Numbered from the stretch's first letter, positions 3,271 through 21,085 are shown. The stretch is 64,000 nucleotides of DNA from Escherichia coli (GCF_046105845.1 NZ_CP151004.1), one strand, 5' to 3'. The notes: a model not told the origin generated them from the letters alone. Program-made: numbers and translations.

Positions 3271-3984
3271 TTATTTGTTTTGGAAATGTTTGTTTTTTCC
3301 CGGTAGTGATTTGTCAAAAAAGGTGATTAATCGATCACTTAATGGCGTCAGCAACACCCAGGGCAAACCGATTAATATCACGGTCATCGAACCGACAATG
3401 ATGTCAGTAAACCAGTGTGCGCCAATCATTACTCTGGGAAACGCAAAAACCACAAAAATAATAAGGGCGATAAGGCCTGCAACTTTGCCGAAATAACGCC
3501 ACATGAATGCCGAAAAAATAAGCAGCATCATACCGTGATCGCCGGGAAAGCTATCTCGTGAGGCATCTTTAGTGGGAACAGAGAGCAGTTCGCTGACGCG
3601 GTTAATATCGGTAAAAGTCAATGTTGGGCTGGCCCGTTTTACAGGAATTAATGCCTGACCCAGCTGGTTTAATACCACTGCAGTTAATAGCATGACCAGA
3701 CCAATAATCACGATACGTCGTCTGCCTGGGGCGTTTTCTTTCAGCCAGAAACTCAGCATCAACATTCCCATCGCCAGCAGTGAACAACCGTCGAAAGCGC
3801 GATTGTTGGTCAATGCAACCAGCCACAAAAAGGCCTTACTTTCGACCAGTTTCTGATTAAAGAAATAAAAAATATCCGCATCAATCGGCAACCAGAATCC
3901 ATGATTAACGGGTATATACCAGGAAAGAAACAGCGCGAGGCCGACAATATTCAACAACACTATTTGCGGCAAATTTTTAATCAT
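3271..3984 (-). CDS. lpxT: Lipid A 1-diphosphate synthase (PAP2-family phosphotransferase)
   Basis: 237 aa from ATG at 3984-3982 (MIKNLPQIVLL…); the track ORF from 4020 is over-extended at the 5' end. Multi-TM with PAP2 motifs (…PGDHG…, …GAHWFTD…). Confidence 0.85.
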   Translation of the reverse strand: MIKNLPQIVLLNIVGLALFLSWYIPVNHGFWLPIDADIFYFFNQKLVESKAFLWLVALTNNRAFDGCSLLAMGMLMLSFWLKENAPGRRRIVIIGLVMLLTAVVLNQLGQALIPVKRASPTLTFTDINRVSELLSVPTKDASRDSFPGDHGMMLLIFSAFMWRYFGKVAGLIALIIFVVFAFPRVMIGAHWFTDIIVGSMTVILIGLPWVLLTPLSDRLITFFDKSLPGKNKHFQNK

Positions 3985-14484: not shown

Positions 14485-15410
14485 AAATTTCCCCTGAATT
14501 ATTACAAATTTCCCCGGAAGTGCAGGACGCTTTAAAAAACAAAAAACCGGTTGTGGCGCTGGAATCGACCATTATTTCTCACGGGATGCCGTTCCCACAA
14601 AATGCCCAGACCGCAATTGAAGTTGAAGAAACTATTCGTAAACAGGGCGCTGTACCTGCCACTATCGCCATTATTGGCGGCGTGATGAAAGTGGGTTTAA
14701 GCAAAGAAGAAATTGAATTGCTGGGTCGTGAAGGGCATAACGTGACCAAAGTTAGTCGTCGCGATTTACCTTTTGTTGTTGCCGCCGGAAAAAATGGCGC
14801 AACCACCGTTGCTTCAACGATGATTATTGCGGCGCTTGCCGGAATTAAAGTATTTGCCACCGGGGGAATTGGTGGTGTGCATCGCGGGGCGGAACATACC
14901 TTCGATATTTCTGCCGATTTGCAAGAACTGGCGCACACCAATGTCACCGTCGTTTGTGCCGGGGCGAAATCTATTCTCGATTTAGGCTTAACTACCGAAT
15001 ATTTAGAAACTTTCGGTGTACCGCTAATTGGCTATCAGACCAAAGCGCTGCCTGCGTTTTTCTGCCGCACCAGCCCGTTTGAAGTCAGTATTCGCCTTGA
15101 TAGTGCCACGGAAATTGCTCGTGCAATGGCAGTGAAATGGCAAAGCGGTCTGAACGGTGGCCTGGTGGTGGCAAATCCGATCCCGGAACAGTTTGCGATG
15201 CCGGAGGAATCTATCAATGCAGCCATAGATCAAGCCGTCGCCGAAGCCGAAGAGCAGGGCGTTATTGGTAAAGAAAGCACACCGTTCCTGCTGGCTCGTG
15301 TTGCTGAACTGACTGGCGGTGACAGCCTGAAATCCAACATCCAACTGGTGTTCAACAACGCCATTCTGGCGAGCGAAATTGCCAAAGAATATCAGCGTCT
15401 CGCGGGTTAA
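14472..15410 (+). CDS. psuG: Pseudouridine-5'-phosphate glycosidase
   Basis: 312-aa ORF of the IndA-like glycosidase family; overlaps the psuK 3' end by 13 bp. Confidence 0.88.
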   Translation: MSELKISPELLQISPEVQDALKNKKPVVALESTIISHGMPFPQNAQTAIEVEETIRKQGAVPATIAIIGGVMKVGLSKEEIELLGREGHNVTKVSRRDLPFVVAAGKNGATTVASTMIIAALAGIKVFATGGIGGVHRGAEHTFDISADLQELAHTNVTVVCAGAKSILDLGLTTEYLETFGVPLIGYQTKALPAFFCRTSPFEVSIRLDSATEIARAMAVKWQSGLNGGLVVANPIPEQFAMPEESINAAIDQAVAEAEEQGVIGKESTPFLLARVAELTGGDSLKSNIQLVFNNAILASEIAKEYQRLAG

Positions 15411-15437
15411 TTTCTGACGGGCAGAAAGCCGTCGCCC
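15411..15437 (+). promoter_or_regulatory. Conserved 27-nt leader motif upstream of psuT (copy 1)
   Basis: tttctgacgggcagaaagccgtcgccc begins immediately after the psuG stop; 26/27 identical to 18639-18665 upstream of nupX. Confidence 0.5.
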
Positions 15438-15503
15438 GTACTCATCAAGCATACCAAAACCTGGCGCTGACGCCGGGTTTACTGGCATGAAGGGAAAATC
15501 ATT

Positions 15504-16754
15504 ATGGATATAATGAGAAGTGTTGTGGGGATGGTGGTGCTACTGGCAATAGCATTTCTGTTGTCAGTGAATAAAAAGGGCATCAGTTTGCGCACGGTTG
15601 GAGCCGCACTGCTGCTGCAAATCGCTATTGGTGGCATCATGCTCTACTTCCCACCGGGAAAATGGGCAGTAGAACAGGCGGCATTAGGCGTTCATAAAGT
15701 GATGTCTTACAGTGATGCCGGTAGCGCCTTTATTTTTGGTTCATTGGTCGGGCCGAAAATGGATGTCCTGTTTGATGGCGCGGGCTTTATCTTCGCCTTT
15801 CGCGTACTCCCGGCGATTATCTTCGTCACTGCGCTCATCAGTCTGCTGTACTACATTGGCGTGATGGGGCTGCTAATCCGCATTCTTGGCAGTATTTTTC
15901 AGAAAGCTCTCAACATCAGCAAAATCGAATCTTTTGTTGCGGTTACCACTATTTTCCTCGGGCAAAATGAGATCCCGGCGATTGTAAAACCGTTTATCGA
16001 TCGCATGAATCGCAACGAGCTGTTTACCGCAATTTGTAGCGGGATGGCGTCCATTGCGGGTTCGATGATGATTGGTTATGCCGGAATGGGCGTACCAATT
16101 GACTACCTGTTAGCGGCATCGCTGATGGCGATCCCTGGTGGTATCTTGTTTGCACGTATTCTTAGTCCGGCAACCGAGCCTTCGCAGGTCACATTTGAAA
16201 ATCTGTCGTTCAGCGAAACGCCGCCAAAAAGCTTTATCGAAGCAGCGGCGAGCGGTGCGATGACCGGGTTGAAAATCGCCGCTGGTGTGGCGACGGTGGT
16301 AATGGCGTTTGTCGCAATTATTGCGCTGATCAACGGTATTATCGGCGGAATTGGCGGCTGGTTTGGTTTTGCCAATGCTTCTCTGGAAAGTATTTTTGGC
16401 TATGTGCTGGCACCGCTGGCGTGGATCATGGGTGTGGACTGGAGTGATGCCAACCTGGCGGGTAGCCTGATTGGGCAGAAACTGGCGATTAACGAATTCG
16501 TCGCTTACCTGAGCTTCTCCCCATACCTGCAAACGGGCGGCACGCTGGAAGTGAAAACCATTGCGATTATCTCCTTTGCGCTTTGTGGTTTTGCTAACTT
16601 TGGTTCTATCGGTGTTGTCGTTGGCGCATTTTCGGCTATTTCGCCAAAACGCGCACCGGAAATCGCCCAGCTTGGTTTACGGGCGCTGGCAGCAGCAACG
16701 CTTTCCAACCTGATGAGCGCGACCATTGCCGGGTTCTTTATTGGTTTAGCTTGA
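15504..16754 (+). CDS. psuT: NupC-family (CNT) nucleoside transporter
   Basis: 416-aa polytopic membrane ORF; close paralog of the ORF at 18691-19941. Confidence 0.88.
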   Translation: MDIMRSVVGMVVLLAIAFLLSVNKKGISLRTVGAALLLQIAIGGIMLYFPPGKWAVEQAALGVHKVMSYSDAGSAFIFGSLVGPKMDVLFDGAGFIFAFRVLPAIIFVTALISLLYYIGVMGLLIRILGSIFQKALNISKIESFVAVTTIFLGQNEIPAIVKPFIDRMNRNELFTAICSGMASIAGSMMIGYAGMGVPIDYLLAASLMAIPGGILFARILSPATEPSQVTFENLSFSETPPKSFIEAAASGAMTGLKIAAGVATVVMAFVAIIALINGIIGGIGGWFGFANASLESIFGYVLAPLAWIMGVDWSDANLAGSLIGQKLAINEFVAYLSFSPYLQTGGTLEVKTIAIISFALCGFANFGSIGVVVGAFSAISPKRAPEIAQLGLRALAAATLSNLMSATIAGFFIGLA

Positions 16755-18591: not shown

Positions 18592-18638
18592 GTGTTGATA
18601 ACAAGCCGGGTCAGTATCGCAAGATGCAGGCCCGGCTA

Positions 18639-18665
18639 TTTCTGATGGGCAGAAAGCCGTCGCCC
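18639..18665 (+). promoter_or_regulatory. Conserved 27-nt leader motif upstream of nupX (copy 2)
   Basis: tttctgatgggcagaaagccgtcgccc, preceded by a hairpin (agccggg…cccggct, 18604-18637) downstream of rihB. Confidence 0.5.
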
Positions 18666-18690
18666 AATATGACATGAAGAGATAATAACT

Positions 18691-19941
18691 ATGGATGTCA
18701 TGAGAAGTGTTCTGGGAATGGTGGTATTACTGGCAATTGCATTTTTACTGTCAGTAAACAAGAAGAAGATCAGCCTGCGTACTGTCGGTGCGGCGCTGGT
18801 ATTACAGGTCGTGATTGGCGGGATTATGCTTTGGTTACCGCCAGGGCGTTGGGTCGCAGAAAAAGTCGCTTTTGGCGTCCATAAAGTGATGGCGTACAGC
18901 GATGCAGGTAGCGCTTTTATCTTCGGTTCGCTGGTCGGGCCGAAAATGGACACCTTATTTGATGGCGCAGGATTTATCTTTGGCTTCAGGGTATTACCGG
19001 CAATTATCTTCGTTACAGCACTGGTGAGTATTCTCTACTACATCGGTGTGATGGGGATCTTAATTCGCATTCTCGGCGGTATATTCCAGAAAGCATTGAA
19101 TATCAGCAAGATTGAGTCATTCGTCGCGGTCACTACCATTTTCCTCGGGCAAAACGAAATTCCGGCAATCGTCAAACCCTTTATCGATCGTCTGAATCGC
19201 AATGAATTATTTACAGCGATTTGTAGCGGGATGGCCTCGATTGCTGGTTCGACAATGATTGGTTACGCCGCACTGGGCGTGCCTGTGGAATATCTGCTGG
19301 CGGCATCGTTAATGGCGATCCCCGGCGGGATCTTGTTTGCCCGCCTGTTAAGCCCGGCTACGGAATCTTCGCAGGTTTCCTTTAATAACCTCTCTTTCAC
19401 CGAAACACCGCCAAAAAGCATTATTGAAGCCGCCGCTACAGGGGCAATGACCGGACTGAAAATCGCAGCAGGTGTGGCGACAGTAGTGATGGCATTTGTC
19501 GCCATCATTGCGTTAATTAACGGTATTATCGGCGGCGTTGGCGGCTGGTTTGGTTTTGAACATGCCTCGCTGGAGTCCATTTTAGGTTACCTGCTGGCCC
19601 CGCTGGCGTGGGTGATGGGGGTTGACTGGAGTGATGCGAATCTTGCCGGGAGTTTGATTGGACAGAAACTGGCGATTAATGAATTTGTCGCTTACCTCAA
19701 TTTCTCACCTTATCTGCAAACAGCTGGCACTCTGGATGCTAAAACCGTGGCGATTATTTCCTTCGCGTTGTGCGGTTTCGCTAACTTTGGTTCTATCGGG
19801 GTGGTGGTGGGGGCGTTTTCTGCGGTTGCGCCACACCGTGCGCCGGAAATCGCCCAGCTTGGTTTACGCGCGCTGGCGGCGGCGACACTTTCTAACCTGA
19901 TGAGTGCCACCATTGCAGGATTCTTTATTGGCTTAGCGTAG
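18691..19941 (+). CDS. nupX: NupC-family nucleoside permease
   Basis: 416-aa ORF, largely colinear and highly similar to psuT (MDVMRSVLGMVVLLAIAFLLSVNKK… vs MDIMRSVVGMVVLLAIAFLLSVNKK…). Confidence 0.88.
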   Translation: MDVMRSVLGMVVLLAIAFLLSVNKKKISLRTVGAALVLQVVIGGIMLWLPPGRWVAEKVAFGVHKVMAYSDAGSAFIFGSLVGPKMDTLFDGAGFIFGFRVLPAIIFVTALVSILYYIGVMGILIRILGGIFQKALNISKIESFVAVTTIFLGQNEIPAIVKPFIDRLNRNELFTAICSGMASIAGSTMIGYAALGVPVEYLLAASLMAIPGGILFARLLSPATESSQVSFNNLSFTETPPKSIIEAAATGAMTGLKIAAGVATVVMAFVAIIALINGIIGGVGGWFGFEHASLESILGYLLAPLAWVMGVDWSDANLAGSLIGQKLAINEFVAYLNFSPYLQTAGTLDAKTVAIISFALCGFANFGSIGVVVGAFSAVAPHRAPEIAQLGLRALAAATLSNLMSATIAGFFIGLA

Positions 19942-19949
19942 TGCGCGAT

Positions 19950-19992
19950 TTATGAGCCGGATAAGACGCGGTCAAGCGTCGAATCCGGCAAC
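19950..19992. repeat. REP element between convergent nupX and yeiI
   Basis: gagccggataagacgcggtcaagcgtcgaatccggcaa, REP-type palindrome (CCGGATAAG…CGTC…ATCCGG). Confidence 0.7.
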
Positions 19993-19996
19993 ATTG

Positions 19997-21085
19997 TTAC
20001 ACCATCGGCACTAATGAAAGCGCGTTATCGGCAGACAGGGTAGGGTTGTTTAAGCTGCCGCTGGCGCGTGAAATTGCCGCGCAGGCCATCGCAAAACGGG
20101 CGCTGTCACGGAAATTGTTTCCCTCCAGAAAGCTATATACCAGGCCCGCCATAAAACCATCGTCAGCACCAAAACTGTCTACTGTCGTATGCGCTGGCGC
20201 TGTCAGCAAAAATTGCTCTCCATTCTTTTCGCTGCAATAAACTGACTCATCGGGCAAATAAACAAACAGTTGCTGAACGCCTTGCTGATGCAACGCATTC
20301 ACTGCGGCATTACGGTCAGCATCGCTGGTGATCGCCTGTCCCCATAAAATTTCCAGCTCCGGTAAAGTGGGTTTCAGGGTGTGAATATGCGCCAGCCAGT
20401 GTTTGATTTTGCCCGCTTTGAATTCTGAAACGGTATCGACAAACACCGGGATTTCATCAGCGAGGGTAAAGACCCACTCCAGCGCCTCGGCTGTCAGGTT
20501 GCAATCAGCAAGTACCACGCCCGCATGACGAAGTAAATCGCGCGACCCGTTCAGTAGTTGCGGTGTCAACTGATCCAGCAGATGGGTATCGTTAATCGCC
20601 AGCACGGTTTGATCATCTCGATTGGCAATTGCCAGATACGTCGATGTGCTTTGACCATGTAAACGAACGCAGCCGGAGACATTCACGCCGGCGCGGCGCG
20701 TTTCTTCCAGGAGCATTTCGCCATAAAAGTCATCGCCAATCACTGAAAGCAAATGGACGTCGCGGCCTAACAGCGCCAGATTGTGGGCGATATTGCGTCC
20801 CACGCCGCCCGCCGAGCAATGAATTGTACCGGGATGAGAAGCCGCTTGTGGGTAACGGATATCCGCCATCCCGCGAATATCCATATTGATTGTCCCAACC
20901 ACTACGCAGTATTCCTGCTCGGTGAGAATGTAACCTTTGCCTTTAATCCGGCCTTTGCGCATTAAATCCATAATATGCGCAGCAACGCGCGAACGGCTGA
21001 TTTGCAGCATATCCGCAATTTCGTTCTGCTGAATCAGCGGGTTACGCCGTAAAATTGCAAGGATCTCCTTCTCCCGGTTGTTCAT
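19997..21085 (-). CDS. yeiI: HTH-fused PfkB-family sugar/nucleoside kinase
   Basis: 362-aa ORF. N-terminal ~55-aa winged-HTH-like segment (…QNEIADMLQISRSRVAAHIMDLMRKGRI…) followed by a PfkB kinase domain (…GGVGRNIAHNLALLG…). Confidence 0.88.
   Translation of the reverse strand: MNNREKEILAILRRNPLIQQNEIADMLQISRSRVAAHIMDLMRKGRIKGKGYILTEQEYCVVVGTINMDIRGMADIRYPQAASHPGTIHCSAGGVGRNIAHNLALLGRDVHLLSVIGDDFYGEMLLEETRRAGVNVSGCVRLHGQSTSTYLAIANRDDQTVLAINDTHLLDQLTPQLLNGSRDLLRHAGVVLADCNLTAEALEWVFTLADEIPVFVDTVSEFKAGKIKHWLAHIHTLKPTLPELEILWGQAITSDADRNAAVNALHQQGVQQLFVYLPDESVYCSEKNGEQFLLTAPAHTTVDSFGADDGFMAGLVYSFLEGNNFRDSARFAMACAAISRASGSLNNPTLSADNALSLVPMV

Follow-up and report, generated by a model that had tools for sequence, protein, structure and literature searches.

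A leader stem-loop conserved ahead of the paralogous nucleoside transporter genes psuT and nupX in Enterobacteriaceae

The 5′ UTR of ompA carries a stabilising stem-loop at its 5′ terminus, and the REP sequence between malE and malF provides an intercistronic hairpin for segmental mRNA stability. The nuoG RNA motif and similar enterobacterial hairpins within operons were reportedly obtained from comparative genomics by Weinberg et al. in 2010. The hairpin described here, P1, is the conserved core of a 27-nucleotide repeat on the Escherichia coli chromosome, and is a small RNA stem-loop in the untranslated leader of the transporter genes psuT and nupX. Like the nuoG RNA motif, it is a short, conserved hairpin that precedes one cistron of a polycistronic operon, is found only in enteric bacteria and is supported by covariation, while its sequence, loop and gene context differ and it is present as two paralogous copies per genome. 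With the ompA and malE-malF hairpins it has in common its stability, the lack of a U-tract, a position in an untranslated operon gap beside a cistron that needs different expression, and the retention of structure over sequence, which is seen in the replacement hairpins of Entomohabitans, Leclercia and Serratia. Unlike the malE-malF REP, P1 has a median of two copies per genome and does not carry the REP consensus. The partial conservation of its loop is unusual in comparison with pure barrier hairpins of the ompA and malE-malF type, and a stabilising role for P1 is one that we infer.

The DNA analyzed is a stretch of 64,000 nucleotides (64 kb) of the E. coli chromosome, hereafter the window, in which the gene order is fruBKA, psuK, psuG, psuT, yeiL (opposite strand), rihB, nupX, yeiI (opposite strand) and nfo. 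The psuKGT genes serve pseudouridine catabolism and rihB-nupX the salvage of pyrimidine nucleosides; to our knowledge, almost nothing is known about the regulation of these two operons in E. coli. The pseudouridine/nucleoside transporter gene psuT (15504–16754, + strand) and the nucleoside transporter gene nupX (18691–19941, + strand) encode paralogous proteins of the CNT family (NupC-type), and each closes a short operon in which an enzyme gene precedes it, psuG for pseudouridine-5′-phosphate glycosidase in the first case and rihB for a pyrimidine nucleosidase in the second. The E. coli coding sequences are 88% identical in amino acids, 78.5% in nucleotides and 43% at fourfold-degenerate sites. 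Between the convergent nupX and yeiI genes there is also a REP-like palindrome (GCCGGATAAG...ATCCGGC, 19955–20003), with weak naRNA4 matches on both strands.

The psuG reading frame ends at 15410, and the first copy of the repeat (TTTCTGACGGGCAGAAAGCCGTCGCCC, 15411–15437, + strand) lies directly 3′ of its stop codon, 66 nt from the psuT start at 15504, while the second copy (TTTCTGATGGGCAGAAAGCCGTCGCCC, 18639–18665, + strand) lies 25 nt 5′ of the nupX start at 18691. The copies differ only at the Y position of the consensus TTTCTGAYGGGCAGAAAGCCGTCGCCC and are thus identical at 26 of 27 positions, an identity that reaches one further base in the 5′ direction (ATTTCTGA...). These are the places, the degree of identity and, to within a nucleotide (about 65 and about 25 nt), the spacings that the earlier note on this DNA had given, and they are borne out by the sequence and by a shuffle test: when up to three mismatches are allowed there are exactly two matches in the window and none in 100 dinucleotide shuffles. 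Since the fourfold sites of psuT and nupX are only 43% identical, a non-coding match of 26 in 27 is far above neutral expectation. A 32-nt probe used to survey 5,426 complete E. coli genomes found the motif in 5,424 of them, at a median of two and a maximum of three places per genome, and the motif is for that reason not a dispersed repeat; REP/BIME and other such families would be expected to have tens to hundreds of copies, compared with the two in the window, which also lack the REP consensus. Six of the 10,814 places recorded in E. coli fall on plasmid-labelled records, and some genomes have three places; the plasmid-labelled and third places may be duplicated or mis-assigned psu/nupX segments.

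The consensus of P1 is R-Y-G-G-G-C, an 11-nt loop AGnnnGCnGUC, and G-C-C-C-R-Y, giving a G+C-rich stem of 5–6 bp within a core that aligns without gaps. In the psuT leader (15417–15439, + strand) the stem is formed by 15417–15422 (ACGGGC) and 15434–15439 (GCCCGU) around the loop at 15423–15433 (AGAAAGCCGUC), with a minimum-free-energy fold of −11.1 kcal/mol and a covariance-model score of 43.5 bits. In the nupX leader (18646–18666, + strand) 18646–18650 (UGGGC) pairs with 18662–18666 (GCCCA), and the corresponding values are −8.3 kcal/mol and 40.3 bits. The two E. coli copies differ by a compensatory closing pair, C15418–G15438 in psuT and U18646–A18666 in nupX. Throughout the 22 sequences of the alignment (A2), 96.2% of the stem cells form standard pairs, and double compensatory changes occur in three of the six pairs (A-U/G-C; C-G/U-A/U·G; G-C/A-U). 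The covariation score of 0.317 compares with 0.194 ± 0.022 in column shuffles and is reached by none of 500 of them, a test that overstates the significance because the 22 sequences are related; all slid-register controls are at or below 0.17. The compensatory changes trace to few independent events. RNAalifold independently predicts the same helix. Wobble cells (G·U or U·G) number six in the stem and A·C cells only one, and the folding strand is therefore the sense strand (mRNA, +); in E. albertii and in E. coli strains of phylogroup B2 the base of the psuT P1 is kept through a G·U plus a U·G.

Mean pairwise identity is 79% in the P1 stem, 64% in the loop and 36% in the 20 flanking nucleotides, and the fourfold-degenerate sites of the adjacent psuT and nupX genes compared are saturated, at about 45%. 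Of 17 isolated 33-mers, 16 have P1 as their fold of minimum free energy, the common form lying at about −8 to −16 kcal/mol, and the single-sequence z-scores are modest, mostly −0.2 to −2.2, so that P1 would not stand out by thermodynamics alone. Hardly any variation is seen within the loop at G22, G25 and U26 and in its 3′ half, GCnGUC, and the conservation of this 3′ half exceeds what a purely structural role would call for. Pairing across the loop is seen for G18·U26 in 20, for 19:25 in 14 and for 20:24 in 11 of the 22 sequences, which makes it probable that the loop forms a weak upper stem, rich in wobbles and capped by a triloop. P1 combines compensatory and wobble pairing on the transcribed strand with above-neutral conservation and a constant position 5′ of a CNT gene, as a selected cis-acting mRNA stem-loop would; it is a selected sense-strand RNA hairpin that belongs to the transporter leader. 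The earlier note's reading of the motif as a shared cis-element under selective retention is in this way supported, and of the natures that it had listed, an RNA-level signal is the best reading.

The pairing that it had pointed to within the motif, tttctg with cagaaa, did not hold up: it is confined to Escherichia, as is the conservation of TTTCTGA, the 5′ part of the motif, and the conserved helix is instead YGGGC/GCCCR. In 20 instances of P1, complementarity of flank to loop was 5.0 bp against 4.8 bp in cross-species controls, with no excess, and complementarity of the loop to downstream sequence was no better than in such controls; the tttctg/cagaaa stem and an H-type pseudoknot built on it were accordingly rejected as conserved features, their complementarity being at control level. 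A GACGG/CCGUC helix in the minimum-free-energy fold of E. coli psuT was also set aside, as it is not conserved, and the loop (AG...GGU) resembles a tRNA D-arm, an idea with nothing in its favour, E. coli itself having GCCGU.

The psuT and nupX loci for comparison were gathered by a genome scan and by exact-protein look-ups. They include E. albertii, three Citrobacter, Kluyvera, Klebsiella michiganensis, K. spallanzanii, Enterobacter and Leclercia types, Buttiauxella, Salmonella, Superficieibacter, Entomohabitans and Dryocola, and the 22 sequences in which P1 precedes psuT or nupX represent about 12 enterobacterial genera. A search for the motif throughout genomes and at orthologous loci had been suggested at the outset, and at the orthologous loci the hairpin is kept rather than lost, so that the refuting outcome named in the earlier note does not arise. 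In all 22 instances psuT or nupX follows directly on the 3′ side, with P1 on the sense strand; behind psuG, P1 begins 6–12 nt after the stop codon, and behind rihB it follows an extra hairpin of variable sequence. A covariance-model search found no P1 elsewhere in the window or in about 635 kb of related loci, and over 88 related loci, including CNT genes of Vibrio, Pasteurellaceae, Burkholderia and Halomonas, the model recovered only enterobacterial psuT and nupX leaders; the best extra match, in a Vibrio locus (L067), is inside a coding region and was discarded. A metagenome scan with YGGGCAGNNNGCGGTCGCCCR gave 80 loci, of which 79 were chance matches in high-G+C coding DNA and one was a Citrobacter-like psuG-psuT spacer. 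The phylogenetic range of P1 is narrow, and there is no sign of an unusual mechanism.

P1 occurs both at loci that have no yeiI (Salmonella, Buttiauxella, Leclercia and Dryocola) and at psuKGT loci without yeiL-rihB (K. michiganensis and Enterobacter FS01), and it travels with the transporter gene independently of the upstream gene, yeiL or yeiI. These loci bear on whether the motif could act as double-stranded DNA, as an operator for YeiL, YeiI or CytR/CRP; the earlier note had named YeiL, CytR and the HTH domain of YeiI as candidate regulators. The motif does contain a short inverted repeat, GGGC-N11-GCCC, in a locus with two uncharacterized regulators; however, its arms are asymmetric beyond 4–6 bp, and it is located inside the operons, downstream of the enzyme genes, where a promoter consensus scan of the + strand of both spacers found no match. 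The T·G combinations in its arms make sense only as wobble pairs in RNA of one strand, and the motif does not resemble consensus half-sites of the CRP/FNR type. The occurrence of P1 without yeiI or yeiL-rihB, its compensatory variation and the lack of a promoter-like site together argue against a YeiL, YeiI or CytR operator, and we consider such a function most improbable. As a separate matter, yeiI (19997–21085), which encodes a winged-HTH domain and a PfkB kinase, is present in every locus that has psuKGT (L086–L089, L092) and missing where rihB-nupX stands alone (L082–L085, L090, L091). This suggests that YeiI regulates the pseudouridine operon, at the psuK promoter and not at the 27-mer.

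Other elements accompany P1. In psuT leaders and in the nupX leader of K. spallanzanii the order is P1, a C-rich block, a second hairpin (P2), the Shine-Dalgarno sequence and an AUCAUU-AUG start region. The C-rich block of the window (ATCAAGCATACC, 15444–15455, + strand; consensus ATCA-nnn-ATACC) is poor in G and predicted to be unpaired; it is common to psuT leaders and, in other genera, to nupX leaders of the long form, and a deletion has removed it from E. coli nupX. P2 (AAACCUGGCG-CUGA-CGCCGGGUUU, 15457–15480, + strand) is a terminator-like hairpin with only three U after it, in which RNAalifold finds nine conserved pairs, mostly invariant; it is found in psuT leaders, in modified form in Entomohabitans, and before K. 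spallanzanii nupX, and has been lost from most nupX leaders including that of E. coli. The block catGAAGrGA, reported earlier as preceding each ATG, is found at 15486–15495 and 18673–18682, where its distance of 7–8 nt from the ATG is that of a Shine-Dalgarno sequence; the Shine-Dalgarno regions themselves are GAAGGGA for psuT (15489–15495, + strand) and GAAGAGA for nupX (18676–18682, + strand), each 8 nt upstream of its ATG at 15504 or 18691. A leader peptide starting from the ATG in catGAAG was considered and rejected: the mini-ORF has 3–8 codons, does not keep its frame from genus to genus and is missing from K. spallanzanii.

The sequence between motif and start codon had been described in the earlier note as unrelated in the two leaders. 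This is correct for E. coli as it stands, and incorrect as to origin: the E. coli nupX leader has lost about 41 nt still common to psuT and to other nupX leaders such as that of K. spallanzanii, and the strain of the window has lost 12 nt more than E. coli strain SCPM-O-B-8794. It is because of these deletions that the spacer looks unrelated and the motif appears as an isolated island of identity. Judged by comparison of the sequences, the whole leader is homologous between psuT and nupX, and not the motif alone.

The spacer before nupX contains an extra predicted hairpin directly 3′ of the rihB stop codon (AGCCGGGUC...GGCCCGGCU, 18604–18637, + strand), whose trailing AUUUCU overlaps the 5′ end of the motif. 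A hairpin in this position was seen in nearly every rihB-nupX spacer examined (also in L083, L084, L087, L089, L091 and L013), with a sequence specific to the genus, and the partial U-tract AUUUCU that forms the 5′ end of the motif follows it only in E. coli. Start-codon hairpins are likewise predicted, at 15498–15516 for psuT and 18669–18702 for nupX. That of psuT and most orthologs is UCAUUAU/AUAAUGA, while the E. coli nupX hairpin, AUGACAU/AUGUCAU, encloses both the Shine-Dalgarno sequence and the AUG and has a 5′ arm created by a lineage-specific deletion. A second in-frame AUG at codon 4 is conserved.

The presence of P2 raises the question of attenuation, in which P1 would act together with P2 (in psuT), or with Rho loading on the C-rich block, to lessen read-through into the transporter gene. 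Across psuT leaders P2 is conserved as a G+C-rich hairpin of 9–10 bp followed by UUU or UUUU, the stretch between P1 and P2 is rut-like in being rich in C and poor in G, and in E. coli nupX the hairpin behind rihB runs into an AUUUCU that overlaps the motif. Yet a terminator scan called no terminator-like site on the + strand of either spacer, most nupX leaders keep P1 and lack P2, and inspection of the sequences found no convincing alternative pairing of P1 with P2, nor any with the Shine-Dalgarno sequence. P1 is directly followed by GUACUC or AAUAUG, and lacking a U-tract it is not an intrinsic terminator; P2 itself has only 3–4 U behind it. In the Term-seq tables of Adams et al. 2021 (PMC7815308) neither spacer has a 3′ end, probably a consequence of poor expression of the operons in laboratory media. 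An attenuating function therefore seems unlikely to us on the evidence of both leaders. Rfam scans of the E. coli, K. spallanzanii and Serratia leaders at permissive E-value thresholds returned only sub-threshold noise; the best match on the leader, to isrJ, scored 18.9 bits where the gathering score is 37, and owed this to the generic P2 hairpin. Literature searches on nupX, psuT, rihB, yeiL and yeiI found no RNA element or regulation described for these spacers, and P1 would appear to be a so far uncatalogued representative of a commonplace class of mRNA elements.

The psuT orthologs form a clade in the protein tree, and the duplication is therefore older than the split of the genera compared. 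Over the 27-mer, the E. coli paralogs differ at one position and stand at 5–9 differences from the orthologs in Citrobacter, Salmonella, Buttiauxella and Kluyvera; they share two derived states, the TTTCTGA flank and the AGAAAGCC loop. Concerted evolution of the two copies is seen in Escherichia alone, and the paralogous copies in Kluyvera, ‘E. hormaechei’ and Entomohabitans have not been homogenized. The identity of 26 in 27, with a flank and loop absent from the orthologs, is explained by homogenization in the Escherichia lineage, most likely through gene conversion: a short conversion event probably took place in an ancestor of Escherichia, after which complementarity of the closing pair was re-established. 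Against conversion, it is awkward in terms of mechanism that the tract would span about 28 nt with non-homologous DNA on either side, and near-identity may alternatively have arisen by parallel selection.

The earlier note had also considered that the motif is a remnant of the duplication that produced the paralogs, and with the whole leader homologous between them it is indeed a legacy of the duplication as well. It is another matter whether it is only that, a functionless neutral remnant with its identity in E. coli maintained by nothing but gene conversion. The near-identity in flank (TTTCTGA) and loop (AGAAAGCC) is specific to Escherichia, where the paralogs are closer to each other than to their orthologs, and in a B2 strain in which nupX is itself a remnant the motif copy has gained just two extra changes; both would fit a lack of function. 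Against this, the hairpin is kept in both paralogs across about 12 genera in spite of saturated fourfold sites and 36% flank identity, changes in its stem are compensatory, and those lineages that lose the P1 sequence have another hairpin at the same position. The neutral reading is already disfavored by these comparative data, and we take it to be very unlikely.

Several side observations concern individual genomes. The B2 strain is E. coli JJ2434 (phylogroup B2/ST131), in which an internal deletion has cut nupX to a remnant of 66 bp (L213, 6882–6947); the two extra substitutions in the motif copy before it give TTTATG...CAGAGA. Around 1,040 E. coli records have the associated variant of the psuT leader, with G·U plus U·G at the P1 base. 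In E. coli 13C1065T (L214, 2000–3554) an IS1A insertion with its associated deletion has taken out psuT and yeiL completely, together with most of psuG and the 5′ end of rihB, leaving only the nupX copy of the motif. The PsuT and NupX proteins of Kluyvera sp. STS39-E (L087, 3851–5101 and 7001–8251) are 93% identical, compared with 86–89% in E. coli, ‘E. hormaechei’ and Entomohabitans, which hints at gene conversion of the coding region in Kluyvera, although its two leader hairpins have not been homogenized.

Some lineages have remodelled or replaced the hairpin. Before nupX of the Leclercia type the loop has been rebuilt into a continuous stem of 12 bp (−18 to −19.5 kcal/mol). The psuT leader of Entomohabitans teleogrylli (L089, about 3609–3641) has in place of P1 an unrelated stem of about 12 bp, CGCTGTTCCCGG-acggatta-CCGGGAAACAGCG, at −26 kcal/mol, and retains the downstream ATCAGGCATAC block. 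In Serratia, Hafnia and ‘Klebsiella sp. BIGb0407’ the psuG-psuT spacer contains another long and conserved hairpin, CCTGAAAGGTGG...CCTTTCAGG, in which the 9-bp base is invariant and the top varies (Serratia grimesii, L007, 2381–2433; same position in L008, L009 and L010). A comparison of this hairpin with Rfam gave no real family and only spurious microRNA matches. With replacement hairpins at the same place, a stable hairpin before the transporter cistron seems to be the selected trait, and the keeping of structure over sequence weighs against a ligand-specific aptamer.

Such an aptamer would be one form of a putative recognition element, in which P1, with or without the ATCA-nnn-ATACC block, would control transporter expression through an RNA-binding protein, an sRNA or a pseudouridine/pyrimidine-nucleoside switch. 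The near invariance of G22, G25, U26 and GCnGUC would be explained in this way, as would the position of P1 before two transporters of related substrates and the conservation between paralogs of the adjacent single-stranded block, and no known family accounts for P1. Described elements of this kind offer partial parallels. The minimal riboswitches guanidine-II mini-ykkC and preQ1-I are also about 23 nt long, lie in transporter leaders and have a partly conserved loop; P1, by contrast, lacks both a pseudoknot and a tandem hairpin with an invariant tetraloop, and its loop is not invariant. The lambda boxB hairpin is GCCCU-GAAAA-AGGGC, and both boxB and the RAT sequences of BglG/SacY resemble P1 in having a short G+C stem and a purine-rich loop in an untranslated leader, but the stem polarity and loop length of P1 differ from those of boxB and, unlike RAT, it has no overlapping terminator.

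The architecture of P1 also falls short of a riboswitch, as it is a single hairpin of 5–6 bp, with no conserved pseudoknot between loop and flank and no second helix in which the loop takes part. Furthermore, the loop is rewritten before Leclercia-type nupX and the hairpin replaced before Entomohabitans psuT while the genes remain intact, and E. coli nupX has neither the downstream block nor P2. Outside Escherichia the paralogous loops within a genome show no co-adaptation, a point against a trans-acting partner specific to the genome, and among the compared loci no candidate binding protein co-occurs with P1. A recognition element is thus an improbable though not negligible prospect, and we are more doubtful still of its strongest form, in which P1 and the adjacent block would constitute a new and tiny trans-regulated switch, responding to a candidate ligand, protein or sRNA, that co-ordinates the two CNT transporters in Enterobacteriaceae.

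The reading we prefer, to which we give a probability of roughly 55%, is that P1 is a leader stem-loop that predates the duplication, that its pairing has been kept by selection and its E. coli copies homogenized, and that its role is structural, in cis and post-transcriptional. The ancestral leader would have comprised P1, the ATCA-nnn-ATACC block, P2 and a Shine-Dalgarno sequence before the gene was duplicated. Selection on base pairing in the sense transcript would then have maintained P1 in both copies across the Enterobacteriaceae, and in the Escherichia lineage the two copies would have been homogenized, most likely by a short gene-conversion tract. Within the polycistronic psuKGT and rihB-nupX mRNAs P1 would have a structural part to play, and we infer as the preferred mechanism that, at the front of the transporter cistron, it serves as a barrier to processing or decay or as a folding insulator. 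The stability and translation of the transporter segment could in that case be set independently of the enzyme cistron upstream.

If P1 is only a hairpin for stability or insulation, it would be a routine addition to the structures found inside operons. Even so, a defined helix of 23 nt with compensatory variation, together with a map of the leader (P1, C-rich block, P2 and Shine-Dalgarno sequence), gives precise targets for mutagenesis, and the psuT and nupX leaders provide a compact natural case of a non-coding structure that has survived gene duplication, been homogenized in one genus and been replaced by unrelated hairpins elsewhere.
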